Origin: Candidatus Latescibacterota bacterium
GTDB taxonomy: Bacteria; Latescibacterota; UBA2968; UBA8231
Assembly (NCBI GenBank): GCA_965205655.1
Contig: CBDBIJ010000091.1
Coordinates: 1 to 64,000, forward strand
Direction: 5' to 3'
DNA: 64,000 bases
This document shows positions 18,772 to 44,599 of the stretch, one piece after another; within the stretch, counting starts at the first letter, position 1, and each line of letters opens with the position of its first letter. A program made the position numbers and the translations under genes. Under the pieces are notes generated by a model, which made no database searches, was not told the origin of the DNA, and saw nothing but the letters and a program-made list of their open reading frames with translations.

Positions 18772-19551
18772 CTATTTCTCGGAAGCCAGTTCGTCGTAGG
18801 ACTTCACTTTGCGCACATCCCGTTCGAAGCGAAAGCGCAGATCGAGGGATTCGAGGGGCTCGTCGCGGAAGTCGTACCTCGTGCCCACGCCTGGAAGACG
18901 AAAGGTGATCACCCTGACGTCATTATGTATCTGGGGGAAGAGTATGAAGCCCTCCACGAGCTGGCCGGAAAAAACGAACTCCTCGGCAGGGTAGGATGTA
19001 CGCGTGACGATGTCTCGGCGTTCGGTGAAGCGCTGATAGGCCAGGCCGGTGTAGCCGACTGCGAAGCGACGGAAATACTCCACAATATCGAAATCTCCCC
19101 ACGGATAATAGGTGCGGCCGTTGTCAGACTCGATGGTCGCCTGCAGTGGGTCGAGTTTCACCTTCGGATATTCGTAGTTCTTGACGCTGACCTTGAACAC
19201 GGAGAACCGCAGCGGCGGACCACCGGTCTGCGGGTCCTCCCAGTCGCCGAAGGTCATGGGGATCGTGGGCAGCTCGCCCCCCGGCCCGCCGCCGTCTTTG
19301 GAGAAGGATATGAACTGACGATTGAGCTCATCGTCGGTCATAGGCCGGACCGAGACCTCGAGGCGGCCTCGGATGTAGGCCGCGGTGCCGTCATCGTACA
19401 CCTGGATCGCAGCTGCGGCACCCGGCTCAGGCTGCTGCTTGGCGTTGAAAGGCTTGAAGTGGCCGGGCACCAGGTAGTAGCCGCAACCCCATATCAGGGC
19501 CAGGGTAACCGGAGCCACAAGAAACCGCTCAATATGGATCCGCATAGTCAT
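18772..19551 (-). CDS. Hypothetical lipoprotein
   Basis: Lipobox LIWGC; RBS aggag upstream; protein-like composition; co-oriented in the operon. Confidence 0.8.
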   Translation of the reverse strand: MTMRIHIERFLVAPVTLALIWGCGYYLVPGHFKPFNAKQQPEPGAAAAIQVYDDGTAAYIRGRLEVSVRPMTDDELNRQFISFSKDGGGPGGELPTIPMTFGDWEDPQTGGPPLRFSVFKVSVKNYEYPKVKLDPLQATIESDNGRTYYPWGDFDIVEYFRRFAVGYTGLAYQRFTERRDIVTRTSYPAEEFVFSGQLVEGFILFPQIHNDVRVITFRLPGVGTRYDFRDEPLESLDLRFRFERDVRKVKSYDELASEK

Positions 19552-19579
19552 GATCGTTTCTCCTGCCAGTGCCGCGCCG

Positions 19580-20977
19580 TTAGCGATCGACGCCGTCCGG
19601 CGCGATGGGGTCTGCCTCTCTTCTCTTGCGCGCCACGAAGGTGTGAAAACGGTCCTCCTCCACCGACACCAGCTGTTGATGCCTGGCTCGCAACTCCTCC
19701 AGGTAGGTCTCGAACAGAGGGGCGGCTCGCTCTTCCCGGAGGTCGCGGAGCACCCTGGATTGGACCAGCGCTGCTCCCCTGGAGTCGAACAGCTCCCCGG
19801 CGTAGCGCTCCCTGTTGCGCTCGAAGTAATCCTGTATCTCCGCTCCGGTGACAGGGATCTGACTCAGCCCGTCGCGGGACCACAGGGCATCGATCGCCTT
19901 CTGTTCCCTCACCGCCTGCCGCTGCTCGGCCAGGCGGCTGTGCAGACCCTTTTCCCTGGCCTCTTTGTCGAGGAGCTGATCCAGCACATACGTGCGTCGG
20001 ATGCGTAGAGCGAGGGACGTGGCCTGGTCGGAAACGGTCAGTTCCTCAACAGGGTGGCGGAGATAGTCGCCAACCGTCCACTCACCGAGGGCGCTGCGCA
20101 CCAGCGGGAGCGCGGGATCCACTTCCGCGGGGTCGGAGGCCACCAGCAATCGGTGGACCGCGGAGCTGTCGAGATCCACGTCGTATTTGCTCATGAGCGA
20201 TTCCAGATACGCCAGGCTTGCATCAAAGTGTGTCTGCCGCTCGATCGCCAGCTCAGCGAGGCCGCGGCGCTCCTGCAGCGAAACGGTGCGCTCTTCCAGA
20301 GCCACGATCAGGACGTAGCGCCCCTCCGTCTCGACGAGTTCAGCCGCACCGGTCCCCTGCTGGAAAAGGGGAAGAAGGCGCGGCTCTCTCACCGTCAGTG
20401 GATTGAGCCAGCGCATATCGCCGCCGCCCGCATCCGCTCGCGGGGACCGTGAGGAAGGAAGGGCGTGGAGCTTTGCAAAGCTCATCCCGTCTCTGGCCCG
20501 CTCGAGAGCGTCCAGGGCCTCGGCGCGGTCCGCAAAGACCAAGCGACCGATACGCAGCTCGCGACCGGCACCCGACTTCGAAAAGAATTCCCTGAGCTCC
20601 TCTTCACCCCACTGGAGCGCGGCGCCCATCTCCAATTCGATGAGACTGTCGATGAGGCGGTTGGTCTCCCACGCCTCGGCCTCGCGCACCACCTCCGGGC
20701 CGTCGTACAGGCCCCGCTCCCGCGCTTCCAGGAGCAACAGCTGCCTGTCGACGAGCAGCTGAAACCGTGCTCGCCATTCCTCCAGAGTCGAAGCCGGGGA
20801 GCCGCCGCCCTCCAGCTTCTGCAGGGCGGCGGCAAAATCGGCATCGGTGATTTCCACCGTGTCCACGTGGGCGAGGATGATTGGCTCCCGCGGGCGATCC
20901 GTCGTGCTCGCGCCACACCCCGCCCACTGCAGCGCGGCGACGCCTACGAGCGTCCCGAGGATCCCACCACCGGCCAT
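19580..20977 (-). CDS. SurA/PrsA-like foldase lipoprotein (degenerate parvulin PPIase)
   Basis: Lipobox WAGC; LLVDRQLLLLEARERGL; GMSFAKL...GGGDMRW; VTGAEIQDYFERNRERY. Confidence 0.8.
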   Translation of the reverse strand: MAGGGILGTLVGVAALQWAGCGASTTDRPREPIILAHVDTVEITDADFAAALQKLEGGGSPASTLEEWRARFQLLVDRQLLLLEARERGLYDGPEVVREAEAWETNRLIDSLIELEMGAALQWGEEELREFFSKSGAGRELRIGRLVFADRAEALDALERARDGMSFAKLHALPSSRSPRADAGGGDMRWLNPLTVREPRLLPLFQQGTGAAELVETEGRYVLIVALEERTVSLQERRGLAELAIERQTHFDASLAYLESLMSKYDVDLDSSAVHRLLVASDPAEVDPALPLVRSALGEWTVGDYLRHPVEELTVSDQATSLALRIRRTYVLDQLLDKEAREKGLHSRLAEQRQAVREQKAIDALWSRDGLSQIPVTGAEIQDYFERNRERYAGELFDSRGAALVQSRVLRDLREERAAPLFETYLEELRARHQQLVSVEEDRFHTFVARKRREADPIAPDGVDR

Positions 20978-21000
20978 TCGCCTATGAAGGCGCGAATTAC

Positions 21001-23621
21001 TCAGTACAGATAACCTCGGCGCTGGGTCGGTCTGCCGCCCTGTCTCTCCTGCTCGAGCCCGGCAAAGACCTCCACAAAGGCGATGGTATTGCTCACGTCA
21101 AAATCCGTCAGATTGTCGAAATTGATGTCGTTTACCTGGAATCCGACGTTGGCGATGATATCGTATCCCAGGTACTCCACCCTGTTGGAATGCTGAGCAG
21201 TGAAGACCTTGCCGACGAAGTCGTCTACGTACTCCGGCGACACGGGGTCGGGGATGGGTTCGGAGTTCCAGAACAGCACGCCTTCGACGCCCACCTCGAT
21301 GCTGCTGTGGCTGAGCAGGGGGAACATGCCGCTCAACGACAGGATCTGGCTCAGCTCATTTATATCAAGCTGCGACGCGTGGGACGGGGTCCGCTTGCGC
21401 CACATGCTCTTCCATCTCGGAGTCACGATGATGCCATCCCCAACTTCGAACGGGCGATCCGCCTTGTTGATCAGACCGAGAAAGAAGCTGTTGTCGAGCC
21501 TGTCAGCTTCGTCACCTCGCTGACGGAAGTGATCGAGGCGCAGCTTGTTCCTCACTGTCAGGTTGCCCGCGACGTAGGTGTGGCCGACAAAGCCCTCGTT
21601 GACGACGGTGTCCCTGCTGATCGAGGGATCGCTGAAGGGCCTGAGACCTCCGGACGAGCCGGGCCGCTGAGCCCACAGGACGACATCGTCGTCGATGTCA
21701 TCCGAGACAGACTTGAGCATGTGAAACAGCTCGATCAGACCAAGGCGCGGGTGATCCCTGGAGAGGGAGACGAGGGAATACCACATCTTGCTGCGAGCCT
21801 CACCGGCGGGGATCCACTCGCGAGAGCGGCCAACCGTCACATTGACACCGGGGTAGATTTCGCTCCCTCCGTACACGTTGTAGCCGCGGTGGCCTTTCTT
21901 GTACGGGTAATCGGCGTCCAAGTCGTTTTCGAACCGATCCACGACCGAGTTGTTGTTCATGTCCACGCCGAAGAGAAAGTCGGGCGGGTCTACATAATGT
22001 CGTAGGAACGGCTCGTCGTAATCCGGAGTGAGGTTCTGGTTCTCATTGAAGTCCGAGATCAAGTCGTTGTTTTCGTCGAATCCGGGGAAGATGCTGATGT
22101 CGGCGGTGCCGCCGCCGGCGCGGGCCCAGTCCACTTCGCGATCCTGGTCGTCGTTGTCGTCGACGTACTCATACCAGTTCCGTCGCGAGTCCGAGTAGTC
22201 CACGGAGTTGTTCAAAGCGTTCGTGATATACCCGCGGGTAGTATAGTCGTGCTCCATCCCGAAGACTTCCCCGTACCCGAAGAGACGACCGCTGCGCTTG
22301 GTGACGTTGAGGAAGAAGGCGTCAGCGGTACGCTCGCTCTTATGCAGATCGCTCAACTTCGCAAAATTGATGTTCGGATACCGATAGTACTGGGTGTTTC
22401 TGGCGAACTCGCCGCGAAGTTGAAACCCGAGCACGTCCTCCACTTCGAGGGTTACGCTGCCGATCTGATTGGCCGATGGTACGCCGTAGTGGAAGCTGAC
22501 CAGTCGCTGATTCGTGTTGTCCCGCACGTTGCCGCTGGCACGGGTCACCGGCAGGAAGATGGGGCTGATCACCTGCGTTCACCTGAAGGTTGGAGGTGAC
22601 ATCAACCCGATAGTCGTTGGACAGCACGAGGTCGAAGCGGACCTTTTCGACACCCAGAGGATCGGGGACCGGGAACCTCAGCTCGATCGGGGCTTCCGAA
22701 ACCGCTTCCAGGAATCCCTCTCTGAGGCGGCCGCCCGAGACGAATGGCTCCACGGCCGAGAGTTCCCCATCGACAATCATCTCTGAGAAGAAATAGAGCG
22801 CCCCGGAACCGTCCCCGGGCGAATCGTCCGTAATTCGGATAATGACTTCGTTGACGTTGCCCGAGTTCATCTTGGCGGGCAACAAGCCGGCCAGCGATGT
22901 CTCGGAGAAGTCGCTGCGGCTGGAGCCGAAGTGGGTGTTCACGAAAGCGACGCCGAGCTCGACGAAGTCCCCGAGCTGGGCCGTGCTCCGCAACCCGATC
23001 AGGTTTGTGTAATCCTGGCGCGGGTCGAGCCTCGTCTCACTCGAAGCCAGGAATAGGCTCGCTGACGCGCGAGAGCAGCACCGTGCCATTGTACTTGTCG
23101 GAGGCGACATCCCACTGGATGCCGTTGAACCGGGCGCGACTGAAGGTCAATGGCGTGAGTGTAGTCCGGATCTCATCTCCGATAGTAAGAGCCGTGTGGT
23201 ACTGGCCTTTCGAATCGGAGGCCACTATCACCTTGCTGAACCAGTTGTTGTACCGCGCCTCCTTCAGCACCGTGCTGCCGAAGGACCGCGGCTGCTGCTG
23301 GCGCCAATCGTAGATCTGCCAACCCCGGGTAAGCCAGTTCCCGAAGATGTCGTACTTCCCGCGGCCCTCCAGCTCCGTGCTCACATATCGCTCGAAGGTA
23401 TCCCGGCCGTAGTTGGTGTAGTTGTAGCCACCCCACTGGTAGTAATTGTAGAGATCGTGGGGCACATACCATTTGCGCAACGTGGGAATGAGCGGGTCAT
23501 ACCCCTCGATCCGCACCTGCGAGGTGGCTCCCCTCTCCCTGCCGGGCGTAGCCGCCAAAAGGCCGGAGGCCCAGCAGCTGATGCAGATCAAAACCATCCA
23601 GCAGATCGTTCGGTGGCGCAT
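21001..23621 (-). pseudogene. Large secreted/probable outer-membrane protein (~872 aa if corrected) split by two +1 frameshifts; pseudogene or assembly error
   Basis: ORFs 23037-23621, 22340-23110 and 21001-22572 read as one protein if one base is removed at ~23040 and one at the G4 run 22561-22564. (2621-2)/3 = 873 codons. Only the first piece has a signal peptide. Confidence 0.8.
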
Positions 23622-23635
23622 GATTTCTCTCTTTC

Positions 23636-25444
23636 TCAGTAGGCCACGGCCACGAGGCGGACAAGAGTCTCGTCGCCTTCATCGGTCTCGACCTCGACCC
23701 GAAGCAGGTACAACCCCGGAGGGACGAGATCTTGCGCATCGTCTCTTCCGTCCCAGGTCAGCGTCATTGGTCCAGATAGACCCAAGTCATTGTGTATCTC
23801 GCTGACCTGCAGTCCCGCCAAATCGTGTACGACAGCCCTCGTCCTGACGTGATTCGTGGCCTTCAGCAGAATGTACTCCAGGCTCACCGCATCGTTGGCG
23901 CCATCGCCATTCGGAGTCAGGACCGGAGAGGATAGCCGGACGCGGGCGATGAGGGGGTCCTCGACGCCCGCCTTCACTACGAGGGCATCGCCGTCAAGAG
24001 CCTCATTGGCGTCACCGGCGACGACGTACTGTGGGAACCCATCGTACTGGCTGTCGACTACCTGGCCTCGAAACTCGGTGCCAGCCACGGTAAGCAGCGC
24101 TTCGAAGTCCACTTCTACCATCTGGCCCGAGGCTTCCACCCGGTCGCCCTCAAACGCGACTGCAAGCTGATTCGATGCGGCAATCCAGGTCGGATCGAAT
24201 TGGACGGAAGCTCCGTCGACGCGCACAGCGGTTGCTCGAGCCTCAAAAGGGGTTGTGATGAAAACGGTGTCAAAGCCCGGTTGGCCAGATGAAAGCACGG
24301 ATCGAAGGTGGTAGGTGAAGGCGGTCGTGTCACCGAGCACGGCCTCGGCGGGCGAGATTTCACCGACAACGGAATCTGCGATAGCCGGGACCGAGTACAG
24401 AATGGTCAATGAATCGACGACGGCCCTGTCGCGAACCCCGTTCGAGCTGAAGTCGAGATCGAACTGCACCCACTGCCTCGCGTCCGGCGAGTCGAACGGC
24501 CCCTCGAGGTAGGGGTACGAAGGGCTCCAGGGGCTCCAGTCGCGGTTGTTTACCACACTGAAACTCCGGAACGAGCGAAGCTGGCCGGACGGGACCTCAT
24601 CCCTGGTGATTTCCCTCACCTGGCCGGCAATACCGGTTGGCATGAAAAAGAGGGAGTCGTCGGCTGCGGACCCGGATTTGGTGCGCAACGTGACACGCGC
24701 CGCGGGATCGATACGGGAGTGGACCTGCATCGGTCCGAAATTCGCCGGCTCCTGCAGGTCGAGGACTTCGCTCACATAGCTCGCGGTGCGCGTTACGCCG
24801 ATGCCGTACACCTCCATATCCCCCATGAGAAAGAAGCCCTGATCAGTGGTGCTGCGTAACCTGAGGAAACGGATTCGCTCGACGGGGAACTGAAGATCCA
24901 GCTCTATGTCCGAGTGGTTGGGGTCAGCAGCAAACAGGGTATACACAGGGTCCGAACCTCTGAAATTGCTGCCGTTGCTGACGTACAACTCGTAACCCCG
25001 GAGGGACAGAGAGCCGAGGTCTATGAAGCGTTCGAAGGATTGCCAATTCGGGTCATTGGGGTCGCTGCCGCGCAGGAGACGTATGCGATGCAGAAAGTAG
25101 GTTCCCTTCAGGTCGATTTCGAGCTCCGCCCCCTTGGTGTGGACCCACACCCGCCATCCGGTTCCGTAGTCACCGTCGGTGAGGTCGGCCATGATAGATC
25201 CCTCGTCCACCGCCGCGGTCACCGAGGTCACGGCCTTTCCGCCGGTTCCCGGCAACAGGTTCTTCGTGCTGTCCAACTCCACGGGAGACAGGCGGTTGCC
25301 GGCTGTTGATAGGCCCTTCAAAACGAGATCGTGATCTGTCCAGGTCCGACCGGACCCGCCGAATTTGAGGGTCGAGACTCTAGCCGCCACTCCGCCAGAG
25401 GATATCGCCAAGGCAGCCAGAATCAGGATCAAGATTCGCGTCAT
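23636..25444 (-). CDS. Secreted discoidin-like/Ig protein with FlgD-Ig/CHU_C-type C-terminal domain
   Basis: Signal peptide; DGDYGTGW...IDL...EVYG; WSPWS; GEISP; LTPNGDGAND...WDGRDD...VPPGLYLL...VAVAY. Confidence 0.85.
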   Translation of the reverse strand: MTRILILILAALAISSGGVAARVSTLKFGGSGRTWTDHDLVLKGLSTAGNRLSPVELDSTKNLLPGTGGKAVTSVTAAVDEGSIMADLTDGDYGTGWRVWVHTKGAELEIDLKGTYFLHRIRLLRGSDPNDPNWQSFERFIDLGSLSLRGYELYVSNGSNFRGSDPVYTLFAADPNHSDIELDLQFPVERIRFLRLRSTTDQGFFLMGDMEVYGIGVTRTASYVSEVLDLQEPANFGPMQVHSRIDPAARVTLRTKSGSAADDSLFFMPTGIAGQVREITRDEVPSGQLRSFRSFSVVNNRDWSPWSPSYPYLEGPFDSPDARQWVQFDLDFSSNGVRDRAVVDSLTILYSVPAIADSVVGEISPAEAVLGDTTAFTYHLRSVLSSGQPGFDTVFITTPFEARATAVRVDGASVQFDPTWIAASNQLAVAFEGDRVEASGQMVEVDFEALLTVAGTEFRGQVVDSQYDGFPQYVVAGDANEALDGDALVVKAGVEDPLIARVRLSSPVLTPNGDGANDAVSLEYILLKATNHVRTRAVVHDLAGLQVSEIHNDLGLSGPMTLTWDGRDDAQDLVPPGLYLLRVEVETDEGDETLVRLVAVAY

Positions 25445-27522
25445 CAGTAGGCCAGGCGCACGAGCCGAGTCTGTGTTTCGGAGCCGGTATCTGTCGAAAC
25501 CGAGAGCCGAAGCAGGTAGAGCCCGGGAGGCACGAGCCGCTCATGGTCATCGCGGCCGTCCCAGGAGTCGAGCGAGGTTGACGCGGGACCGTTGGGCTGA
25601 TCGGCCTGCAATTGGCGCACCCGCCGGCCGGTTAGATTGTGAAGTGTCAGCTCCACGGGTACGGCGGCCAACGCCTTCATGAGGACGTAGGTGATCGTCA
25701 GCTCGTCGTTGATTCCATCTCCGTTCGGGGTGAATACGGCAGGCTCGACCTGAAGATCCTTCAGCAAGGTCCGCAGCAATTCTCCGTGGATGGAGAGTCT
25801 ATCCGCGTCGGAGTCCGCTGTGGCGTCGCCGGGCAGCACCTCCTGGCCGAACTCTCCCCTTCCAAAGTCGAAAATCCGACCGGAGAACCTGGTTCCGAAA
25901 ACGGTGACGAGACCGCGGAAGCGGACCTTCAGGACCTGGTCCGAACTCTGGATGCGGCGCTCCATGAGCCGCACGGTCAAGCTGTTGGGATCGTCGAGGC
26001 CGATTTCCTCGAATTGATCCGGCGGTACCGTCTCTCCGTCCAGCTCGACGGATTCGAGAATTGCCGGGAATGGAGTCGTGATGCGAATGGCGTCCAGTCC
26101 CGGAACGCCTCCCGGCTCCACCAGAATCTGATACTCATACGACACCGCGGACTCTCTTTCCGGGTCAGTGAAAGAGGCATCGCTGACGTCTTCTATCCGC
26201 GCGATCACCTCGAACCGGCCGTCGTCGACGGGCCGTCGCTCGACTCGATACGCCCCGAAACTGGCGCCCGAGAATGGACTCCACCGCAAGTTAGCCGAGG
26301 TACCCTGAGCCCCGATCTGGACGGCGAGCAATGGCGCTTCGATGGCGAACTCCGGACGGATGAAGTAGTCGAAAGTCTGCTCCTGTCCCAGGACGACGGT
26401 GGCGGGGATGATCTCACCCACCACGCCCCCCCCGGCCAGCGACGGGGTGGAGAATTCGATCTCGAAGGACTCGACGGCCGCGGTCTGGCGAACGTGACCG
26501 GAAGTGAAGAGGAGACGAAACTGGACAAATTGCCTGTTGCCAGCAGATCGGAACTGGTCCGACAGGTCGCCGGAGGGAGCCGACCAGCGACTCCAGTCCT
26601 CCAGGTTGTCCCGCTCCACACGGTCATCGGAATTGAGCGTGGCGAATATCGCGGCGGCTTGCGGAAAACCCACAGGTTGGATCGGCTCTTCCGTTATTCC
26701 GCCTGCCCGGAGGTCTTCGACCTTCCGGTAATAGATGTGCGGGTCGAGCACCGAACCAGTACGGGTCTGTAGCACGACGTCGGTCTCGGGATCCCGCAGC
26801 ACCGACGCAAACATGTCGCCGAAGTTCGCCGGTTCCTTCAGATCTCTGATCTGCGAGGTGAACTGACCGGTTGGCGCGAAGCCGTCTCCAAAGACCTCCA
26901 ACTCAGTGATGGTGAAGATCTTCTCAGCGCGGTTTTCCAGTTTGATGAACCTCACGTACTGCAAAGGGAAGGCCATATCGATGACGGGGGAGTCCTCATC
27001 GGCACTTGAGAGCTTCGGATCCCCGAAGTCGATCGGGAGATCATGGCGCAGCCTTTCCGGATCGCCGTCGTGCAGGAACAGTTCCCACGCACGCATGAAG
27101 CTCTCCTCTTTGCCGCTGACAATGATCCGTTCGATCGGCAGAATCGCTCCCAGGTCGATGCGCACGGAAAACCCGGTAAAGTCCGTCCGCTTTGCCGGGG
27201 GCTGCCAGGAGGTGGCGTGGTTGTCATCGGTCAGCGGAAGGATGAGATTGGCGTGTTTGTCCTGCGCTGCGAAAATATGTCCGCCGCGCTCTTTGATGTC
27301 AGATAGAGCGTCCCTGGCAGGATCCACTCGCGACAGTCTCAGGACGCCGTTCACAGTAGAGACCCCCTCAAGCTCGCCGATATCCTCCCAATCGATACCG
27401 CCAACACCGATGCGCAAGATGTCGGCAGCCGCCACCGGGCCAACGCCAAGGGGGAGGCAGACCGCAGCCGACGAGATCAATACGATCAGGATCGACATGA
27501 CTGGATCGCGGTTGCGAGTCAT
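25444..27522 (-). CDS. Secreted discoidin-like/Ig protein with an extra FN3-like insert and FlgD-Ig/CHU_C-type C-terminal domain
   Basis: Same architecture as its neighbour plus LRWSP...YRVER...FTD...YEYQI; ends FTPNGDGINDE...WDGRDD...VRLAY. Confidence 0.85.
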   Translation of the reverse strand: MTRNRDPVMSILIVLISSAAVCLPLGVGPVAAADILRIGVGGIDWEDIGELEGVSTVNGVLRLSRVDPARDALSDIKERGGHIFAAQDKHANLILPLTDDNHATSWQPPAKRTDFTGFSVRIDLGAILPIERIIVSGKEESFMRAWELFLHDGDPERLRHDLPIDFGDPKLSSADEDSPVIDMAFPLQYVRFIKLENRAEKIFTITELEVFGDGFAPTGQFTSQIRDLKEPANFGDMFASVLRDPETDVVLQTRTGSVLDPHIYYRKVEDLRAGGITEEPIQPVGFPQAAAIFATLNSDDRVERDNLEDWSRWSAPSGDLSDQFRSAGNRQFVQFRLLFTSGHVRQTAAVESFEIEFSTPSLAGGGVVGEIIPATVVLGQEQTFDYFIRPEFAIEAPLLAVQIGAQGTSANLRWSPFSGASFGAYRVERRPVDDGRFEVIARIEDVSDASFTDPERESAVSYEYQILVEPGGVPGLDAIRITTPFPAILESVELDGETVPPDQFEEIGLDDPNSLTVRLMERRIQSSDQVLKVRFRGLVTVFGTRFSGRIFDFGRGEFGQEVLPGDATADSDADRLSIHGELLRTLLKDLQVEPAVFTPNGDGINDELTITYVLMKALAAVPVELTLHNLTGRRVRQLQADQPNGPASTSLDSWDGRDDHERLVPPGLYLLRLSVSTDTGSETQTRLVRLAY

Positions 27523-27548
27523 CTCTTCATCTTTGCACCAAAGCCAAG

Positions 27549-27582
27549 AAAAAAAGGGGAGGGGAATGGCTCCCCTCCCCTT
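27549..27582 (-). terminator. Rho-independent terminator after the CBM9-like gene
   Basis: Perfect 12-bp inverted repeat aaggggagggga/tcccctcccctt (27554-27565 / 27571-27582), followed by a U-tract on the minus strand (A run 27549-27555). Confidence 0.85.
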
Positions 27583-27623
27583 CGGGACTGAATGGAACTG
27601 CCGCCAGGTGGCGACGGGTTTCT

Positions 27624-28526
27624 CTACAGGCCTTGACCGGACAGGGCCTTGATCTGGCCCCAGGAGGTCGCCTGGACCGCCGTGGCTCCCGCTGGAACAG
27701 GAGTCAAGTAGACGTCCGGGATGCCGCCGTCATTGACGAAGGCCTCGGCCGTGGAAACGGCGAGCTGCCAGTAATTCTGGCCTTCCACTCCGCCTTCCCC
27801 GCCGCCCTGGTTGATGCCGGGATCGGCGTCAGAGATGAACTGCGCCAAGCCGGTGGTAAAATCGGGCGTCAGCGTAAAGACGGTGCTGGCGTCCGGGCCG
27901 TCGGTGGCATGCCAGGGGTCGAACAGACGGGCGTCCCACTCATAGGTGGTTTCCTCGCCAATTCGAGTGATTGCCCGGCGAAAGAATCCCGACGATGCCC
28001 ACCAGTGGTCCGGGCAATTCCCACTGCACTCACCGCGAAAGCTGGTGATCAGGGGAAAGAAAGCCGGATCCTGGCGGTTGCCAAAGCTGACCTGCATGGT
28101 GACGCGGTCGAGCTCCTCAGCGGCCTGGCCGTGGGGTCCACTGCCCTGATTGTCCGGATCGAAGATCAACTCCATGGAGTCTTCGAAGAAAGGACAGATG
28201 TTCAGGCCGAAGTCGACGATCTCAACATCGTCGTGGACTTCGCAGATGCCAGCCAGCTTGTTGGTGGCACCATCCCAGCCGTAGAGTATCTGGGCGAAGA
28301 AGTCGTCCGCATCGGTCGCCTCTCCCTTGACGACGAACATGTCATCGGAGGTGATCTCGAAGCCTGACCTGTTGGCCCAGCCCCAATCACCACTGCGGCC
28401 GTCGATGGTGGGAGTGCCACCCGGCGGGATTCCTATAGCAGAGTACAGGGGCACCTCTGCCGGCTCCTGGGCCACGGCGATCGTGGCAACCAGGGCTACT
28501 AACACAGCTGAAAAAAGCGTGCGCAT
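27624..28526 (-). CDS. Secreted CBM9/DOMON-like sugar-binding protein with SWGQIK tail
   Basis: Signal peptide; PTIDGRSGDW, YGWD...L...VHDD, EDSMELIFDPDN; strong RBS ggagga; ends TAVQATSWGQIKALSGQGL. Confidence 0.8.
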   Translation of the reverse strand: MRTLFSAVLVALVATIAVAQEPAEVPLYSAIGIPPGGTPTIDGRSGDWGWANRSGFEITSDDMFVVKGEATDADDFFAQILYGWDGATNKLAGICEVHDDVEIVDFGLNICPFFEDSMELIFDPDNQGSGPHGQAAEELDRVTMQVSFGNRQDPAFFPLITSFRGECSGNCPDHWWASSGFFRRAITRIGEETTYEWDARLFDPWHATDGPDASTVFTLTPDFTTGLAQFISDADPGINQGGGEGGVEGQNYWQLAVSTAEAFVNDGGIPDVYLTPVPAGATAVQATSWGQIKALSGQGL

Positions 28527-28552
28527 ACGCTTCCTCCTTCAGAAGGATGAAA

Positions 28553-28687
28553 CTTTGACGCGAGCCCGCGTCAAAGGTGGATTAAAAACAGCACCTATTT
28601 ATTAAAAACAGCACCTTAGGTACACCGAAATGATCGCACCGCTAACACCTAAGATGTCTAAAGTAACTCGTGTAACTTCGAAGTCAA
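28553..28687 (-). promoter_or_regulatory. Putative sigma70 promoter and structured 5' leader of the CBM9-like gene
   Basis: AT-rich island. Minus-strand TTGACT (28687-28682), 16 nt spacer, TACTTT (28665-28660). 16-bp direct repeat attaaaaacagcacct at 28581 and 28601. 10-bp hairpin ctttgacgcg/cgcgtcaaag at 28553-28576. Confidence 0.55.
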
Positions 28688-35234: not shown

Positions 35235-35283
35235 GTTGCGGAGCAGGGGAAGTAGACCTCAGTCCACGGCAAAGGAGCGGCTT

Positions 35284-37737: not shown

Positions 37738-37852
37738 TCAGATCTCGCAACCCTCGATGCTCCGCCAGCGGGGCTGGTTCATCCCCCTTCCTCGTTCATC
37801 GTCAAATCAGCTCGACCGCAACTCTGACGGGTAATCGGGGTCGCAGTGTGAC

Positions 37853-38067
37853 ATGAGCGCCAAGCCGTCCTGGTCGGGGCCATCAGCATTCATTGTCTGC
37901 CCGTGGGCCATACTCGCGGTCAAAGGGCCCCTCGGTCGCCTGAGGAAACGTTACGAGAGCGGATCGTCGTGTACGACAACCGCCTACAACAGGCGGCAGA
38001 TTTAAGGCGCCAGGAGACCGCTGATGAGCCGGGTGCTCTCTTTGACCAGCTGGGGTCAAATAAGTAG
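37853..38067 (+). pseudogene. Chimeric duplication-junction remnant: decayed 5' end of the DUF6785-like gene joined to the decayed 3' end of the PPIase gene
   Basis: 37853-37929 matches 40680-40790 with a 40-bp deletion. 37931-38067 matches ~35097-35234 with a 1-bp deletion. Confidence 0.88.
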
Positions 38068-38117
38068 GTTGCAGAAAGGGGAAGTAGACCGGGCCCACTA
38101 TGCCGGAGGAGCGGACA

Positions 38118-40571
38118 GTGAAAGCTCTGAAGAAATACTGGATTCTCGTTTGTCTTCCCGCCCTCGCCGGGGCGGACGAGTTGCGCTTTGATGCAAAGCG
38201 TGACTGGGAGAAGTGGCGGCTTCCCCTCGGCGCGGTGGAACTGGAGCTGAACGGGACCATACGGCCGGTTTCGGTGCAAAAGAACATCAATGCCGTGCTG
38301 AATGCCCCGGCTTTCGAGGGGGGCATTCGCGAGGCCGGCTCTAACGAGAGCGCCGCCCGCTTCGTAATGGACGGGAGGGAGGATACGGGATGGGCACCGG
38401 ACCCCGAGGATCCACCTCGGGACTGGTATATCGAGGTCGACATGGGCCGCGTCGTGAGCGCCACGGCGATAACCTTCGTGTTCGATGAAGAAGCAGAGCC
38501 GTTCGAGCTGTTCAACGTGCTGCTGTCTGGCGGCGAGCCCCTGCAGGCGAGCGGCAATATTGCGATCGAGGGCACCCTCGTCTACAAGATCAAGGATATC
38601 ATCAGGCAGAACAAACAGCACCGCGTGACCTACGCTCCCGGCGAGGTGCTCGAGTACACGGCAATCAGGGCAGTGCGCATCGAGGTTCTCGACTTCGAGC
38701 CCGGTGGCAGGCTGATGGAGGTGGAAGTCAACGCCATCGGGCACAATGTGGCTCTGCACATGAAGCCGAACAACGGCAGCGCCCAGATGATCCTCGATCC
38801 CGATGTGTCAAATGAAGAAATAGCGGTTGCCAACGTGCTGCCGCTGGTGGATGGGGCGGTGTTCACCCGCTTTCTCGACAAGCGCGAAGCGAGGTACTCG
38901 TATGACACGTGGTGGGATTTTACGGTCGATCTGGGCGCGACTTACTGGCTGGACCAGGTGAGGATGTACGGCTGGACAGCGCTGCGGCCGAACCACACCG
39001 GTAGATATTCGGTCAGAGATAGAGAGGGGAACCTCATTCTCGTAGGCGACGGCTCCACGACCCAGGTCACCAGGGCATTCAACATCGGGTCGCAGGAGCT
39101 CCGCAACACCATCGATGCCCTGGGGCGTCGCGATTTTACCCTGAAATTCTATGAAGTGCTCACCTCCGACGGGTCCCTGGCTCCGGATGGCAGTTTCTTA
39201 TGGACGAAGCACTTCTCCGGTCGAAGGACCCTCCGAGACCAGCGATTGGGAGTCGTCGACCATCACTTCGATCTGACGCAGGCGCGCCTGTTCCGGATCC
39301 GCTGGCTCGCTTGGGACGCGGCTTGCAACGACAGATTCAGATTCGGGGCAGCGGGGTCGCAGGGCCTTACACAGGGGTTCGGAACGTGCTACGGGCATGG
39401 CACGGCGGATGAATACCAGGTTTTCGGGGAGGGCCTCCCCGCGGATGTGGAGCTCACATCCGGACCGATCGAGCTGGGTGGAGACAAGAATCTCATGAGC
39501 GTGAGCTGGGAGGCGGAAACGCCGCCGGGCACGCGGGTGGAGATCAGGAGCCGCACCGGGAATCATATGCGCGTGGACACGACCGCGTGGTTCGACAACA
39601 AGGGAGAACCGGTCAGTCAGAGGAGATGGAACAGTCTGAGGAAGCAAAATCGGGCGGGTGACGTGACGGAGATACGCAACGCCGGCGATGACTGGAGCCC
39701 GTGGAGCAACATCTACACCGCTTCCGGCCAGGCCTTCCAGTCACCCTCGCCGCGTGAGGCCATGGAGTTGAGCGCCCGTCTGGTGAGCGAATCGCCCCTG
39801 ACCGCGGCCAGTCTGGACTGGATCGCGGTGGAGTTCTCGGCACCCATCGCCAGGAGCGTCTTTGGGGAGATCGTCCCGACTCAGGTGCAACCGGGCGAGC
39901 TGACCGAATTTTCGTACTACGTCCGCCCCATGGGATCAACGCAACAGCTCGACCAGGTAACGGTTGCCGCGCCAGTGCCGGTTCGATTCATGGGGGCGTC
40001 CATCGGCGGTGAAGCTGTTGAGGTAGGGGAACCTGACAGTCTCGACGACGGCTTCCGGATAACGTTTCCGCGGACGGTGCTAGAGAATCAACTCGTGGAG
40101 GTGCGATTCGAATCGTCCGTGTTCGTGCAGGGTACGCGCTTCGAGGCGTTTCTGGGCGATAGCAAGCGCGAGGCGGTCAGACAGCGGGTGGATCCCGGTG
40201 ACGCCAATAGGCAGGTCGAGAGCAGCACGAATGTCGTGAGGCTTCCCGTCAGCGACGACCTCATTTCAGATCTGCGCGTCGAGCCACAAGTCCTCACCCC
40301 GAACGGAGACGGGATCAACGACGAGCTCGAGCTCACGTTCTTCGTGGCAAATGTGTTGAGCCCGCGCCCGATGCGATTGCGGGTGTTCGATTTGTCCGGA
40401 CGCCTCGTTCACGAGGAGGACAGAGATGCGATCGCCGGCGAGCAGACGTTCGTCTGGGACGGCAGCACCGGCGGCACAGCGGTGGCGCCCGGAGTCTACC
40501 TGCTGGAGCTCAGCCTGGCCGGCGATGCTCGCGACGACGTGTCGCACCGACTCCTGCCCGTGGCTTACTGA
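38118..40571 (+). CDS. Secreted double-discoidin-like/Ig protein with FlgD-Ig/CHU_C-type C-terminal domain (copy 2)
   Basis: Close paralog of 35284-37737; GTG 38118 after RBS ggagga; ends LPVAY. Confidence 0.87.
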   Translation: MKALKKYWILVCLPALAGADELRFDAKRDWEKWRLPLGAVELELNGTIRPVSVQKNINAVLNAPAFEGGIREAGSNESAARFVMDGREDTGWAPDPEDPPRDWYIEVDMGRVVSATAITFVFDEEAEPFELFNVLLSGGEPLQASGNIAIEGTLVYKIKDIIRQNKQHRVTYAPGEVLEYTAIRAVRIEVLDFEPGGRLMEVEVNAIGHNVALHMKPNNGSAQMILDPDVSNEEIAVANVLPLVDGAVFTRFLDKREARYSYDTWWDFTVDLGATYWLDQVRMYGWTALRPNHTGRYSVRDREGNLILVGDGSTTQVTRAFNIGSQELRNTIDALGRRDFTLKFYEVLTSDGSLAPDGSFLWTKHFSGRRTLRDQRLGVVDHHFDLTQARLFRIRWLAWDAACNDRFRFGAAGSQGLTQGFGTCYGHGTADEYQVFGEGLPADVELTSGPIELGGDKNLMSVSWEAETPPGTRVEIRSRTGNHMRVDTTAWFDNKGEPVSQRRWNSLRKQNRAGDVTEIRNAGDDWSPWSNIYTASGQAFQSPSPREAMELSARLVSESPLTAASLDWIAVEFSAPIARSVFGEIVPTQVQPGELTEFSYYVRPMGSTQQLDQVTVAAPVPVRFMGASIGGEAVEVGEPDSLDDGFRITFPRTVLENQLVEVRFESSVFVQGTRFEAFLGDSKREAVRQRVDPGDANRQVESSTNVVRLPVSDDLISDLRVEPQVLTPNGDGINDELELTFFVANVLSPRPMRLRVFDLSGRLVHEEDRDAIAGEQTFVWDGSTGGTAVAPGVYLLELSLAGDARDDVSHRLLPVAY

Positions 40572-40679
40572 CCGGATCAGCCTGCCCTCGATTTCCAGCC
40601 CGGCGGGCTGGTTCATCCCCTTCGTCATCCATCGTCGTCTCAACCGCAGCTCTGATGGCAGCTCGGGTCGCGGTGTGAC

Positions 40680-42617
40680 ATGAGCGCCAAGCCGTCCTCC
40701 GGGGTGTCCTGGCCGGCAGTCCTGACAGGAGCCGTCCTCGTCGGGGCCATCAGCATTATCTGCCCTTGGGCCATCCTCGTGGTCAAGGGCTCGCAGTTCG
40801 CCGGCAACGCCCTGCCCGTCATCGCCGTCATCCTGCTCTTTCTGCTCGTCGCTCTCGTCGTTCCAGCTCTCAAGCTCCTGCGCTCCCGGCTCGCTTTCTC
40901 AAGGGCCGAAATAATCACCATCTACATCATGATGCTCGTGGGAGCGGTGGTGGTCACTGACGGATTCAGCGGCAGCTTTCTCACCGTCATAACAGGGGCC
41001 GTTTACTACGCCACCCCCGAAAACAGGTGGCTGGAACTCTTCGCTCCCAACATCCACCCCTGGTTGGCGCCCACCGATCGCGATGCGGTGCGCTGGTTCT
41101 ACGAGGGACTTCCGGCTGGAATGGCAATCCCGTGGTCGGCGTGGGCGCGACCGCTGGCGGCGTGGCTTCCCTTCATGCTCGTCTTCTACTGGGTTTTGTT
41201 CTGCGTCGGCGTGTTGCTGCGGGGGCAGTGGGTGGAAAACGACAGGCTCGTGTTTCCCCTCACCCGCCTGCCACTGGCCATGACCGAGGATGCTGACGAT
41301 GGCGGCAGGCTCGTGGAGCGGCTGTTGAAACACCCGCTGCTGTGGCTGGGATTCTCAGTCCCTTTCCTGTTTCACTCGTGGAATGGGCTCACCTTCTACT
41401 ACGACGGTCTTCAGAAACTATCCGTGGGCGGTGCTCTGCAGCTGCTGAACGGTGAGGTACTCGTACAGTATCGGCTGAATCTCCCCGTCATCGGATTGGC
41501 GTGGCTGATGCCCCTGGGCATCTCCTTCAGCATCTGGTTTTTCCACTCTCTCGGCGTCTTTCAGGATTGGATACTGAAGCGCCTCGGCATCGTGGTCGGC
41601 AGCCTCGACGTGTGGGATTCGGGCGGCTCGCCGATCAGCATTCTGCACGAACAGGCCGGGGCGCTCACGGTGCTGTGCTTTTTCGTGCTGTGGACGGCGC
41701 GCCGGCATCTGAAGGAATTCTGCTGGGCCGCCCTGCGCGGAGAAAGGAGAGAGCGGGAGCCACTATCCCCCAGACTTGCCCTGATCGGGCTGCCGGTGGG
41801 GCTGGTCCTGATGGTGAGCTGGCTGACGATCACCGGCCTCTCGCTCTACGTGGCCGTCCTGCTCGTGGCCGGGTCTCTCGTCGTCTTTATCGCCCTGTCC
41901 CGCATCGTCTGCGAGGTGGGTCTGCCCAGCATCCAATCGCCGATGGTGCCCCAGACCTTCATTACCCGCGGTTTCGGACCGGGTGTGCTGCAGCTGAAGA
42001 ACATGACGGGACTGGGCCTGAGCACGGTGTGGATGGGCGACACGGTCACCAACATGATGAACGCGGTGATGCACAGCATGAAGCTCACCTCTACGAGGGC
42101 AGCGGCTGACCGCCGGTTGCCGCTGGCCATGCTGCTCGCCATCGTCATCGGACTGGCGGGGTCGCTGTGGTGCATCATGACGCTGGCCCATACCCACGGC
42201 GGCATCAACCTGCAGCCCTGGTGGTTCAGCGCGGCGCCGAGGTGGCCCTTCCGATTCATGGCTTCGGTCTACAACTCACCCGAACCGAGCTTTGCCCCGC
42301 GAGCGCTGTTTACCGCCATCGGGGCGGGAATCATGTCGGCGCTCCTGTTCCTGCGGGCACGCTTCCCCTGGTGGCCCCTCAACCCGATAGGCTTTCCGAT
42401 CGCCAAGACGGTGACCATCGTCTACTGGAACTGGCTCGCCATATTCACCGCATGGGTGTTGAAGTTCCTCGTTCTGCGCTACGGCGGCGTCCGCGTATTT
42501 CGCACCCTGACGCCATTTTTCCTTGGTTTGATCCTCGGCGAATTCTCGACAGCCGGTCTGTGGCTCGTCATAGACGGTGTCAACGGCGTCGAGGGAAATA
42601 TCATCTTCAGGCAATGA
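40680..42617 (+). CDS. Polytopic membrane protein, DUF6785/DUF6784-like (putative peptide/oligomer transporter), copy 1
   Basis: Many TM segments; YYATPENRW, IPWSAW, QWVENDRLVFPL, WWPLNPIGF, LRYGG...PFFLGLILGE. Confidence 0.82.
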   Translation: MSAKPSSGVSWPAVLTGAVLVGAISIICPWAILVVKGSQFAGNALPVIAVILLFLLVALVVPALKLLRSRLAFSRAEIITIYIMMLVGAVVVTDGFSGSFLTVITGAVYYATPENRWLELFAPNIHPWLAPTDRDAVRWFYEGLPAGMAIPWSAWARPLAAWLPFMLVFYWVLFCVGVLLRGQWVENDRLVFPLTRLPLAMTEDADDGGRLVERLLKHPLLWLGFSVPFLFHSWNGLTFYYDGLQKLSVGGALQLLNGEVLVQYRLNLPVIGLAWLMPLGISFSIWFFHSLGVFQDWILKRLGIVVGSLDVWDSGGSPISILHEQAGALTVLCFFVLWTARRHLKEFCWAALRGERREREPLSPRLALIGLPVGLVLMVSWLTITGLSLYVAVLLVAGSLVVFIALSRIVCEVGLPSIQSPMVPQTFITRGFGPGVLQLKNMTGLGLSTVWMGDTVTNMMNAVMHSMKLTSTRAAADRRLPLAMLLAIVIGLAGSLWCIMTLAHTHGGINLQPWWFSAAPRWPFRFMASVYNSPEPSFAPRALFTAIGAGIMSALLFLRARFPWWPLNPIGFPIAKTVTIVYWNWLAIFTAWVLKFLVLRYGGVRVFRTLTPFFLGLILGEFSTAGLWLVIDGVNGVEGNIIFRQ

Positions 42618-42655
42618 TCTCGCGGGGATAGAGTGTTGGAGATCCACGGAGCAAG

Positions 42656-44599
42656 ATGAGCGACAGATCCACCTCCGGCGTGAGCGGCCGAGCCATTCTG
42701 ACCGGCGCTGTCCTGGTAGGCGCCATCAGCATCATCAGCCCCTGGGCCATCCTCATCGTCAAGGGCTCGCAGCTGGCCGGCAACGCCGTGCCCATCATCG
42801 CCGTCTTCTTCCTGTTCGGCCTCGTCGCCGTCTTCGTACCGGCACTCAAACTGCTCGGAGCCCGGCTCGCTTTTTCCAGAGCCGAGCTTATCACCGTCTA
42901 CACCATGATGCTGGTGGGCTCGGTGATCGTCACCGTGGGGTTCAGCGGCAGCTTTCTCACCGTCACGACGGGCGCCATCTACTACGCCACGCCGGAAAAC
43001 CGGTGGCACGAGCTCTTTGTCTCCAACCTCCACAAATGGCTGGCGCCCACTGATCACGAGGCCGTGCGATGGTTCTACGAAGGCCTCCCCGAGGGCGTGC
43101 CGATTCCGTGGTCGGCATGGGTGCGTCCACTGGCGGCGTGGATACCCTTCATCCTCGCCTTCTACTGGGTGCTCTTCTGCATCGGGGTACTGTTGCGGGG
43201 ACAGTGGGTGGAGAACGAACGGCTCGCCTTTCCGCTCACCCGCCTGCCGCTGGCAATGATCGAAGACGTCGACGATCGCGGCAGGCTCGTAGGACGACTG
43301 TTCAAGAGGCCGCTGTTGTGGGTGGGTTTTCTGATTCCCTTTCTCTTCCACTCGTGGAACTCGCTCAGCGGCTACTTCGACGGCATCCCGAGAATGGCCG
43401 TGGGTGGTGCCTATCCGCTGCTGAACGGGGAGGTGATGATCCAGTATCGACTCAATCTTCCCGTCATCGGACTGGCTTACCTCATGCCGCTCGACGTCTC
43501 ATTCAGCATCTGGTTTTTCCACGTCCTCGGGCTCGCTCAGGAGTGGGTATTGAAGCGCCTGGGGATCGGCACAGGTCTCGGTCTCGACATCTGGGACTCG
43601 GGCGGCTCCCCGGTGAGCATGCTGCACGAGCAGGCCGGCGCCCTGGCAGTGCTCTGCATTTTCGTGTTGTGGACGGCGCGCGGGCATCTGAAGGAATTCT
43701 GCCGGGCAGCCATCCGAGGAGACCGGAGAGAGCAAGAGCCGGTCTCTCCTCGCGTGGCAATCGTCGGACTGCCGCTGGGCCTGGTGATCATGGTGGGGTG
43801 GCTGACAACGACAGGCCTCCTCTCGCTTGGAGTGGCCGTCCTTCTAGTGGGAGGGGCGCTCGTCGTCTTCATCGGCCTTTCGCGCATCGTCTGCGAAGCG
43901 GGTCTGCCCAGCGTTCAATCGCCGATGGTGCCCCAGGCGTTCATCACGCGGGGCTTCGGGCCGGACACGCTCCAGTTGCACAACATGACCGGACTGGGCC
44001 TGGCCACGGTGTGGATCGGGGATACGATCACGAACATGATGAACGCCGTGATGCACAGCCTCAAGCTCACGTCGACACAGAGCAGGGCTGACCGCCGGCT
44101 GCCGCTCGCCATGCTGCTGGCTGTCGCCATCGGTATGACGGGATCGGTGTGGTGCATCATGACGGTGGCCTACGCCCACGGCGGCATCAATCTCCAGGGC
44201 TACTGGTTCGAGCTGTTGCCCAAGTGGCCCTTCAGCTACATGGACTCGGCCTACAACTCGCCGGAGTCGAGCTTCACTCCGCGGGTGCTCTTTACCGCCA
44301 TCGGAGCGGGTGTCATGTGGGTGCTCCTCTTCTTGAAGAGTCGCTACATGTGGTGGCCTCTCAACCCGATCGGGTTTCCGATCGCCAAGACGGTGACTAT
44401 CGCCTATTGGAACGGGCTCGCCATTTTCACGGCGTGGATATTGAAGGCTTTCATTCTGCGCTACGGTGGCGTACGCCTGTATCGCAATCTGACACCGTTT
44501 TTTCTCGGATTGATTTTGGGAGAGTTCTCGACCGCCTGCATGTGGGCGTTCATCGACGGGCTGAACGGCGTCGAGGGGAACATCATATTCAGGAACTGA
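42656..44599 (+). CDS. Polytopic membrane protein, DUF6785/DUF6784-like, copy 2
   Basis: Collinear paralog of 40680-42617 with the same motifs. Confidence 0.82.
   Translation: MSDRSTSGVSGRAILTGAVLVGAISIISPWAILIVKGSQLAGNAVPIIAVFFLFGLVAVFVPALKLLGARLAFSRAELITVYTMMLVGSVIVTVGFSGSFLTVTTGAIYYATPENRWHELFVSNLHKWLAPTDHEAVRWFYEGLPEGVPIPWSAWVRPLAAWIPFILAFYWVLFCIGVLLRGQWVENERLAFPLTRLPLAMIEDVDDRGRLVGRLFKRPLLWVGFLIPFLFHSWNSLSGYFDGIPRMAVGGAYPLLNGEVMIQYRLNLPVIGLAYLMPLDVSFSIWFFHVLGLAQEWVLKRLGIGTGLGLDIWDSGGSPVSMLHEQAGALAVLCIFVLWTARGHLKEFCRAAIRGDRREQEPVSPRVAIVGLPLGLVIMVGWLTTTGLLSLGVAVLLVGGALVVFIGLSRIVCEAGLPSVQSPMVPQAFITRGFGPDTLQLHNMTGLGLATVWIGDTITNMMNAVMHSLKLTSTQSRADRRLPLAMLLAVAIGMTGSVWCIMTVAYAHGGINLQGYWFELLPKWPFSYMDSAYNSPESSFTPRVLFTAIGAGVMWVLLFLKSRYMWWPLNPIGFPIAKTVTIAYWNGLAIFTAWILKAFILRYGGVRLYRNLTPFFLGLILGEFSTACMWAFIDGLNGVEGNIIFRN

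Follow-up and report, generated by a model that had tools for sequence, protein, structure and literature searches.

A large predicted outer-membrane barrel encoded with T9SS-type surface proteins in Latescibacterota, and its possible role in nutrient import

INTRODUCTION

TonB-dependent transporters (TBDTs) and SusC are 22-strand outer-membrane barrels closed by an N-terminal plug domain (PF07715), and fimbrial ushers carry a periplasmic N-terminal domain, a plug between strands 6 and 7, and two C-terminal domains. Members of the Latescibacterota are widespread, uncultured polymer degraders. Here, we examine a divergent cassette of cell-envelope genes in a 64,000-nucleotide window (the whole stretch of DNA analyzed, positions 1 to 64,000 of contig C91, CBDBIJ010000091.1) from a Candidatus Latescibacterota bacterium genome estimated to be 84% complete (GCA_965205655.1). 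The cassette is one copy of a much-repeated Latescibacterota module that pairs a large barrel with secreted proteins ending in tyrosine (Tyr-tailed proteins). We read this module, with a probability of about 0.5, as a SusCD-analogous, proton-driven nutrient importer with lectins delivered via a type IX secretion system (T9SS); its folds are predicted, and docking, gating, transport, and substrate are what we infer around them.

Other described systems bring together barrels and surface proteins. In Bacteroidota, type B T9SS cargo genes usually lie directly upstream of their cognate PorP/SprF barrel (accessible part of PMC12618676), and the cargo remains bound to that barrel (accessible part of PMC9143113). 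Deinococcus SlpA combines a 30-strand barrel with an SLH domain and a coiled coil, its pore holds metal-bound insertions, and a scaffold role has been proposed for it (accessible part of PMC9388160). GltG/J of Myxococcus have been proposed to act on outer-membrane barrels via TonB_C domains (accessible part of bioRxiv 2020.07.22.216333). No description of the present module was found in the literature searched, which excluded most subscription papers and supplements, and the accessible Latescibacter literature on outer membranes and polysaccharide utilization names only generic porins and TonB receptors. As the first-pass annotation of this DNA had supposed, the cassette matched no characterized pathway.

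RESULTS

The cassette genes lie where they had first been placed, in two divergent arms; we refer to them by their first coordinate. Most of the named matches to the window's proteins are from Candidatus Latescibacterota. ORF denotes open reading frame, PPIase peptidyl-prolyl isomerase, CTD C-terminal domain, and AF2 AlphaFold2.

18772..19551, minus strand: lipoprotein of an unnamed family, linked to the barrel (lipobox; neighborhood counts; TonB-C-like domain in some paralogs)
19580..20977, minus strand: degenerate parvulin/SurA-like chaperone lipoprotein (BLAST to 28702; synteny)
21001..23621, minus strand: predicted outer-membrane beta-barrel of ~24 strands, new family (AF2 of intact ortholog; fold searches)
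23636..25444, minus strand: Tyr-tailed protein 1, CBM32/discoidin, beta domain, Ig, and T9SS-type CTD (AF2)
25444..27522, minus strand: Tyr-tailed protein 2, with an extra Fn3 insert (CHU_C, FlgD_ig, fn3; weak TIGR04183/TIGR04131)
27624..28526, minus strand: secreted, CBM9-like, ending in a short conserved tail, TAV...SWGxIK (family profile)
28702..30393, minus strand: PPIase/foldase lipoprotein, two parvulin domains (Pfam, NCBIfam, lipobox)
30590..32245, plus strand: secreted CRTAC1-like FG-GAP/ASPIC beta-propeller (Pfam)
32167..33696, plus strand: TPR lipoprotein, true start probably ~75 nt inside the ORF (Pfam, lipobox)
33693..35234, plus strand: PPIase/foldase lipoprotein, one parvulin domain (Pfam, NCBIfam, lipobox)
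35296..37737, plus strand: Tyr-tailed protein 3 (F5/8, CHU_C, weak TIGR04131)
37738..37928, plus strand: copied spacer with the dead 5' remnant of a DUF6785 gene, a tandem-duplication scar (blastn, sequence)
38100..40571, plus strand: Tyr-tailed protein 4, 91% identical to protein 3 and recently duplicated from it (BLAST/blastn)
40680..42617, plus strand: DUF6785/DUF6784 polytopic inner-membrane protein, putative carrier (Pfam)
42656..44599, plus strand: second DUF6785/DUF6784 protein, 76% identical to the first (Pfam, BLAST)

The core gene, 21001-23621, is spread over three frames in the window assembly. Orthologs of 858-871 aa span all three frames end to end at 54-77% identity, and two contigs from different studies, one of 9.3 kb (run X2) and one of 2 kb (run X3), each have one base fewer at 22561 and at 23050. 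Because both extra bases are missing from these contigs, the barrel gene is one ORF of ~870 aa; the frameshifts are, as judged from sequence, assembly errors or a minor allele, and the whole orthologs together with the two contigs rule out a pseudogene. Other split genes of this assembly, such as a barrel on contig C144, may likewise be assembly errors, and further one-base differences from runs X2 and X4 were seen at window positions 33671 and 37741, one of them near the end of the TPR gene.

We ran AF2 on an intact 871-aa ortholog with 137 aligned sequences, and the model (predicted local distance difference test [pLDDT] 78.5, predicted template-modeling score 0.80) bears out the proposal that the ~870-aa protein is an outer-membrane barrel. 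About 24 strands were counted from the secondary structure of the model, in which tight turns and long loops alternate (coordinates were not inspected), and hydropathy alternates in most of them. Only ~70 residues of low confidence precede strand 1, which means that a TonB plug is lacking. On the side of the long loops, residues 234-379 form a large inserted beta-sandwich and residues 456-575 a second large insert, an Asp-rich and probably Ca-binding loop. This loop and the N-terminal segment are the best-conserved parts (0.72 and 0.70, against 0.50 in the C-terminal strands). The family comprises 1,205 representatives at 50% clustering (E up to 0.001); no relative of solved structure was found in searches of PDB sequences, and in the ESM Atlas the barrel and the 18772 lipoprotein match only unnamed clusters, the nearest named ones, DUF6029 and DUF4352, scoring <0.9. 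In genomes G083 and G010 and on contig C5 of the window's genome (G000:C5), barrels often occur as tandem pairs of two different subclades, which may mean heterodimers.

The barrel was then compared with known barrel classes. Pfam gave no TonB plug or receptor match on the window pieces or on 62 family members, no clear TonB box was seen by eye, and the N-terminal consensus varies among three barrel groups. Relative to SusC/SusD, it has ~24 strands, no plug, no SusD, and no sequence likeness. Neither PorP_SprF nor TIGR03519 matched the ~870-aa protein. Its top fold match is SlpA (Foldseek E 1.3e-9; Z 14.3, 410 aligned, root-mean-square deviation [rmsd] 8.2), tied with ordinary porins; TBDTs, ushers, LptD, and MtrB did not rank above generic barrels in the fold-search listings, although absence from a listing is no proof. 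With the SlpA/OmpM tethers (PDB 8ae1/7zgx), the best structural match, it shares very large size and acidic insertions, here probably metal-binding, but it lacks an SLH domain and coiled coil (no SLH match in the barrels, no long helix in the model), has fewer strands, and is multi-copy and patchy in distribution. Fourteen of the 62 members match one 70-100 aa stretch of Pfam SlpA_C (PF21620), one of them over the cut-off, and these matches span ~90 of 656 profile positions; 0/3 tested members of the window's clade match, and the barrel family profiles find no SlpA chain among PDB sequences. Fimbrial ushers (FimD/PapC) likewise combine a 24-strand barrel and an inserted beta-sandwich with co-encoded chaperones and Ig-rich surface proteins. 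In the present model, however, the insert lies on the long-loop side between strands 7 and 8 (counted by eye), no usher N-terminal, plug, or C-terminal domain is seen, there is no sequence match, and the superposition is poor (Z 12.8, rmsd 7.3). The barrel thus lacks features that define TBDT/SusC, PorP/SprF, ushers, and SlpA, and as modeled is a new family and architecture of outer-membrane beta-barrel.

The four Tyr-tailed proteins had been described as paralogous discoidin/Ig proteins with an Ala-Tyr (AY) tail. Their lectin-like fold is upheld by the AF2 model of 23636 (pLDDT 88), which has a CBM32/discoidin domain (Z 13.7, rmsd 2.2 in fold comparison) and an Ig domain that precedes a last domain matching the PorU CTD (Z 11.5, rmsd 2.7, 99 aligned); no catalytic domain was seen in this protein. 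By Pfam, F5/8 matches are weak and found in three of the four, CHU_C is over its cut-off in three of the four, and FlgD_ig is weak. The genes for 35296 and 38100 arose by recent tandem duplication and are 90.6% alike across 2.6 kb (blastn of 35001-38100 against 38101-44700). AY is not the exact signal, since the tail is the terminal Tyr of a T9SS-type sorting domain: this Tyr is invariant in 94 aligned sequences and present in 227/231 profile hits (some of which are duplicates from overlapping loci), with VY at 107 and AY at 105 of the ends, and a TPNxDG motif occurs in 190/231 tails. Matches of this CTD to the type A and the type B models are both weak, and the TIGR04131 cut-off (35 bits) was not reached in the three proteins scanned (14-18 bits in two, no match in the third). 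On this modeling, the Tyr-tailed proteins are CBM32-fold binders with a T9SS-type sorting domain that ends in Tyr; sugar binding is predicted.

As predicted T9SS cargo, the binders would make the system dependent on a known secretion machine. The genome encodes SprA (565 bits), the PorV family (five single matches over the cut-off), and PorU (two over the cut-off), along with 29 candidates with type A-like tails. PorP (TIGR03519) was not found in the genome and GldM was found in 0/5 genomes, and in both searches the control was also silent. Another part of the window (57327-63240) encodes an M6-family metalloprotease that has a type A CTD; a PorZ-like gene (NF052228 E 1e-57, below the cut-off) is divergent from it, and a second PorZ-like gene seems to be on contig C84. 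Type B systems built of cargo, PorP/SprF, and PorE (SprB-SprF; PG1035-PorP-PorE) share with this module a cargo gene directly upstream of the barrel, a TPNxDG-type CTD, a lipoprotein partner, and SprA/PorV/PorU in the genome. By contrast, the barrel here is nearly three times longer and unrelated to PorP, the CTD combines a type A-like fold with a terminal Tyr that is invariant, many barrels lack cargo, and the motor link is to ExbB/ExbD, not GldLM.

The CBM9 likeness proposed for 27624 holds for its family, whose profile matches PDB 1i82 (E 5.9e-5) and in which 4/19 members match CBM9_1, but not for the window protein alone, which gave no CBM9_1 match. Its tail, TAV..(S/T)WGx(I/V/L)K, is common to about a dozen unrelated secreted proteins genome-wide (CBM9-like, FGE-fold, and others); the window carriers of SWGx(I/V)K are 27624-28526 and 12505-13446. 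From its sequence, this tail looks like a third sorting signal beside the type A and Tyr-tailed CTDs.

Co-occurrence and gene order are kept among Latescibacterota loci, and the homologs are not scattered. The order CBM9-like, Tyr-tailed (two or three genes), barrel, foldase, lipoprotein recurs in three other genera, and G010 additionally keeps the divergent CRTAC1/TPR/PPIase arm. Eighty loci were taken, 56 with full flanks and 55 with gene calls, from close kin and biased to the window's clade. A Tyr-tailed gene is found in 55/55 and lies directly upstream of the barrel in 45/55; the same 55 loci hold PPIase (39), SWGxIK (34), lipoprotein (22), DUF6785 (18), TPR (14), and CRTAC1 (12) genes. 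Across the phylum, the barrel occurs in 91/151 genomes, including 66/66 in the window's family, and is absent from four families (60 genomes). All 91 barrel-bearing genomes also have a strong Tyr-tailed match (E 3e-29 or better), and 13 barrel-free genomes have one match each, near 1e-16. The window's genome holds ~14-16 barrel genes, and four near-complete genomes hold 4-41 each, an expansion like that of TBDTs.

A tree of 49 barrels separates the window's clade (clade I), motor-locus barrels, and a solo clade. In clade I, Tyr-tailed genes are always near. The solo clade is monophyletic (18 rows, SH-aLRT [Shimodaira-Hasegawa-like approximate likelihood ratio test] 100), and 17/18 have no Tyr-tailed gene within 5 kb of available DNA, which implies that the barrel has a job without cargo. 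In the four near-complete genomes (counted after merging split matches and excluding G026 and four short fragments), a Tyr-tailed gene lies within 5 kb of 29/29 clade I barrels against 14/65 others, and directly upstream of 18/29 against 6/65. For barrel and Tyr-tailed placement in G083, 17/34 were seen against 0.14 under random placement. Around ten solo-type barrel loci of G002, 25/81 other genes are catabolic, against 7/84 at twelve control sites (Fisher p 3e-4); 61 of the 81 were scanned, with the remainder counted as misses, and thresholds differed, the stricter one giving 24/81. The classes counted were PhyH, GFO, enolase-type, sulfatase, glycosidase/deacetylase, amidohydrolase, and isomerase. 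As these were chosen after seeing the data, thresholds differed, and genes are clustered, we take the enrichment as moderate support. A 470-520 aa family without a Pfam match adjoins G002 solo barrels (L038:11891, L040:3502, L040:11162, L045:6882, L045:17986, L033:8361) and is possibly a hydrolase of an imported substrate.

The 18772 lipoprotein has no Pfam, NCBIfam, or PDB match, yet its homologs cluster with barrels, 18/21 lying within 10 kb of one (expected 2.4). Two paralogs have an AgmX/PglI TonB-C-like domain (NF033768) over the cut-off, and the same C-terminal extension is present in 3/11 aligned sequences. ExbB lies within 10 kb of a barrel in 6/16 cases (expected 1.3) and within 5.3 kb of an 18772-family lipoprotein in 7/16. 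At such motor loci, barrels and cargo accompany ExbB, ExbD, a giant TPR protein, a transmembrane (TM) DUF4159 protein, and an 18772-family lipoprotein. Since the lipoprotein family is tied to ExbB/ExbD and to a TonB-C-like domain, the system is probably not energy-independent. One motor locus of the window's genome (L001:1-7428, G000:C146) holds ExbB, two ExbD, TPR, and TM-DUF4159 genes, then three barrels, ahead of which is a lipoprotein with the TonB-C-like domain; another (L006, G000:C143) holds ExbB/ExbD-like genes, TPR, a PorV/PorP-like barrel, a lipoprotein, and a foldase. The master loci resemble Myxococcus Agl-Glt (AglRQS-GltG, TPR, GltA/B/H barrels) in ExbB with two ExbD, TPR, and a GltG-like C-terminal domain, and differ from it in carrying the TonB-C-like domain on a lipoprotein, in a TM arm with DUF4159 at its end, and in barrels and cargo that are unrelated.

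Of the three PPIase/foldase lipoproteins first annotated, 28702 and 33693 have rotamase domains over the Pfam cut-off. The third, 19580, is degenerate: it has no Pfam match and is recognizable by BLAST similarity to 28702 (E 1.6e-16), with a weak TIGR02925 match. Its ortholog directly follows the barrel in 12/12 orthologous loci (L070-L080, L082). Foldase 33693-35234 has a His-rich insert (~residues 295-320), which perhaps binds metal. The CRTAC1/TPR pair was recovered as first described, with FG-GAP and ASPIC in 30590 and TPR in 32167, as were DUF6785 and DUF6784 in both membrane genes.

By hydropathy and lipobox pattern only, without SignalP, every cassette gene has an export or membrane signal, as the first-pass annotation had it. 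A lipobox is present in 18772, 19580, 28702, and 33693 and, if translation begins at a later start, in 32167. The N terminus is hydrophobic in 27624, 30590, the barrel, and all four Tyr-tailed proteins, and each DUF6785 gene encodes 10-11 strong TM segments. Pfam and NCBIfam gave no match to a TonB-dependent receptor, SusD, or ABC ATPase among the cassette genes, in line with the first description. SusD (PF07980) is found in 0/13 genomes of the window's family, and the control was positive in B. thetaiotaomicron. The proposed SusCD-independent machine therefore stands in lacking SusD; it is probably not self-standing, since it would rely on T9SS, a known machine that had gone unnamed.

Related genes extend the cassette leftward beyond 18772, with an enolase in between that shows no TM segment:

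17326..18726, minus strand: enolase-superfamily enzyme, co-oriented passenger (MR_MLE_C)
12505..17377, minus strand: continuation to the left, with two further FG-GAP/ASPIC proteins and an FGE-fold protein bearing an SWGxVK tail
8706..12503, plus strand: CRTAC1-TPR fusion, the fused form of the 30590/32167 pair (Pfam, BLAST)

Two neighbors had been counted as parts of the system, and neither withstood comparison. Among orthologous GTDB loci, 11 had enough flanking DNA to compare (L070-L080, of which L070 is identical to the query); in 11/11, the gene after the lipoprotein encodes >1,200 aa, so that 0/11 have an enolase there, which rules the enolase out as a conserved part. In G010 this gene is an M28/MacB/FtsX fusion, followed by DUF6785; orthologous loci have a conserved M28/MacB/FtsX-DUF6785 trio after the lipoprotein where the window has the enolase. 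The trio, seen at L022:7378-15950, L027:6163-14799, and L008:5631-14871, is completed by a distantly related membrane protein of 660-700 aa. DUF6785 genes are ~3-fold enriched near barrels (30/91 within 10 kb, expected 9.4, fragments dropped) but abundant in a barrel-free genome, and are ruled out as a dedicated part, being a frequent neighbor only. No relative of solved structure was found for DUF6785 by sequence, and 0/14 DUF6785 proteins match OPT (PF03169). DUF6785 does match its 663-aa neighbor family (HH probability 88%), and weak OPT matches fall just beside DUF6785 genes (E 2e-4 to 3e-3), suggesting a distant, two-step link to OPT carriers. At 881-2890 and 4007-6613, the window also holds ABC sugar-transport genes with unusual fusions, of a solute-binding domain with a permease and of a permease with a GH42-like periplasmic insert.

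DISCUSSION

The importer that we favor would work most like a polysaccharide utilization locus (PUL) crossed with type B cargo anchoring. The ~24-strand barrel would plug its own pore, with a conserved N-terminal segment of 50 residues, with the Asp-rich and probably Ca-binding loop, or with both. Tyr-tailed CBM32-fold proteins would exit via SprA, retain their CTD, and dock on the barrel in the manner of type B cargo on PorP/SprF, there serving as a set of substrate-binding lids. A shared ExbB/ExbD motor from a few master loci, partnered by the TM-DUF4159 arm, the giant TPR protein, and the 18772-family lipoprotein, would open the barrel in Ton fashion. Parvulin lipoproteins may chaperone barrel or cargo in the periplasm, and DUF6785 carriers, often but not always at the same locus, may move product over the inner membrane to catabolic enzymes. 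Substrates would most likely be glycans or acid/sulfated sugars. Like the first-pass annotation, we infer import, its substrate, and the link between foldases and clients.

Bacteroidota SusC/SusD PULs and TBDTs offer the closest parallel, with large paralog families of barrels and surface binders near catabolic enzymes and inner-membrane carriers, and a shared ExbB/ExbD motor encoded elsewhere. Here, in contrast, the binders are T9SS-CTD proteins rather than lipoproteins, there are several per barrel, and chaperones are private. Several observations weigh against import. The barrel shows neither a canonical plug nor a clear TonB box, and it weakly resembles the scaffold protein SlpA in both sequence and fold. 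The window cassette itself has no motor gene and few catabolic genes, and the catabolic enrichment comes from one genome, with classes picked post hoc and genes clustered. In G083, 86 Tyr-tailed genes stand against 34 barrels (~2.5:1), unlike the 1:1 of SusC and SusD. A transport role for DUF6785 is putative, and G013, without any barrel, has 25 DUF6785 matches. Ordinary TonB-dependent receptors are also still present, with plug domains in 21/21 genomes searched (11 matches in the window's genome, 4-27 across the family), so the barrels are no simple replacement for them, and outright replacement was ruled out.

If nothing passes through the pore, the barrel could be a giant PorP/SprF analogue that anchors SprA-exported cargo as an adhesin or lectin coat, with the lipoprotein in the PorE role. 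Cargo directly upstream of the barrel (45/55 loci, 18/29 in clade I), the arrangement described for type B cargo and sprF-like genes in the accessible part of PMC12618676, fits such display, as do TPNxDG in 190/231 tails, the CHU_C/TIGR04131 matches, the co-occurrence of barrel and cargo in all 91 barrel-bearing genomes, and the missing TIGR03519 PorP (control silent). It is nonetheless rather unlikely, given a whole barrel clade without cargo neighbors among catabolic genes, a DUF6785 linkage that it leaves unexplained, a Tyr-tailed CTD that folds like the type A CTD of PorU, and 24 strands with two large inserts, which seem excessive for an anchor. As modeled, the barrel appears big enough for solute passage, unlike a 14-strand anchor, which counts for import; we prefer import over pure anchoring mainly because of the solo clade and its catabolic context. 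Import is further favored by the TBDT-like expansion, by the enrichment of DUF6785 and ExbB genes near barrels, by the TonB-C-like domain on lipoprotein paralogs, by partners of lectin fold that show no catalytic domain, and by the lack of SusD matches in all 13 genomes searched in the family.

We find it improbable that the barrel is a distant SlpA/OmpM-like envelope scaffold with a metal-bound insert plug, holding a surface layer, paracrystalline or fibrous, made up of Tyr-tailed and CBM9-like proteins. Fold searches rank SlpA first, 14/62 members match SlpA_C (one over the cut-off), and SlpA itself has metal-bound pore insertions and a proposed scaffold role (PMC9388160, accessible part), but SLH and coiled coil are missing, ~24 strands compare with 30, the Z score is tied with unrelated porins, and 0/3 clade I members match SlpA_C. 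Dozens of divergent paralogs in metabolic contexts, absent from 60/151 genomes, also fit a structural staple poorly. Least probable of the readings weighed is a motor-driven export or motility platform like Agl-Glt, in which ExbB/ExbD/ExbD would pull, through TonB-C-like domains, on barrels that display or shift Tyr-tailed adhesins, perhaps without SprA. The master loci, with ExbB, two ExbD, TPR, TM-DUF4159, and the AgmX/PglI (GltG-like) domain beside barrels and cargo, recall the action on barrels proposed for GltG/J (bioRxiv 2020.07.22.216333, accessible part), and GldM was not found in five genomes (control silent). Motor genes, however, lie a long way from most barrels, solo barrels would be left without anything to export, the catabolic and DUF6785 context points inward, and SprA/PorV/PorU are present for CTD export.

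In its fullest form, the import reading would give a phylum-scale alternative to TonB/SusCD uptake, with plug-less 24-strand barrels gated by ExbB/ExbD via a DUF4159 arm and a TonB-C lipoprotein, exchangeable lectin lids delivered by T9SS under a new Tyr-terminal signal, and a second SWGxIK tail serving the same modules, and it would be the first importer with T9SS cargo as binding subunits; taken whole, this is tentative and on the doubtful side. A seemingly broken core gene here proved to be whole, its frameshifts being assembly errors or a minor allele, and Latescibacterota genomes carry up to dozens of these barrels without annotation. If import is correct, they would solve selective uptake across the outer membrane in a second way, independent of TonB-dependent receptors, and barrel neighborhoods would predict substrates, as PULs do. 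Import or not, the module offers a barrel of new architecture, a T9SS sorting class that is new and lies outside Bacteroidota, and a pairing of cargo and barrel that can be tested.

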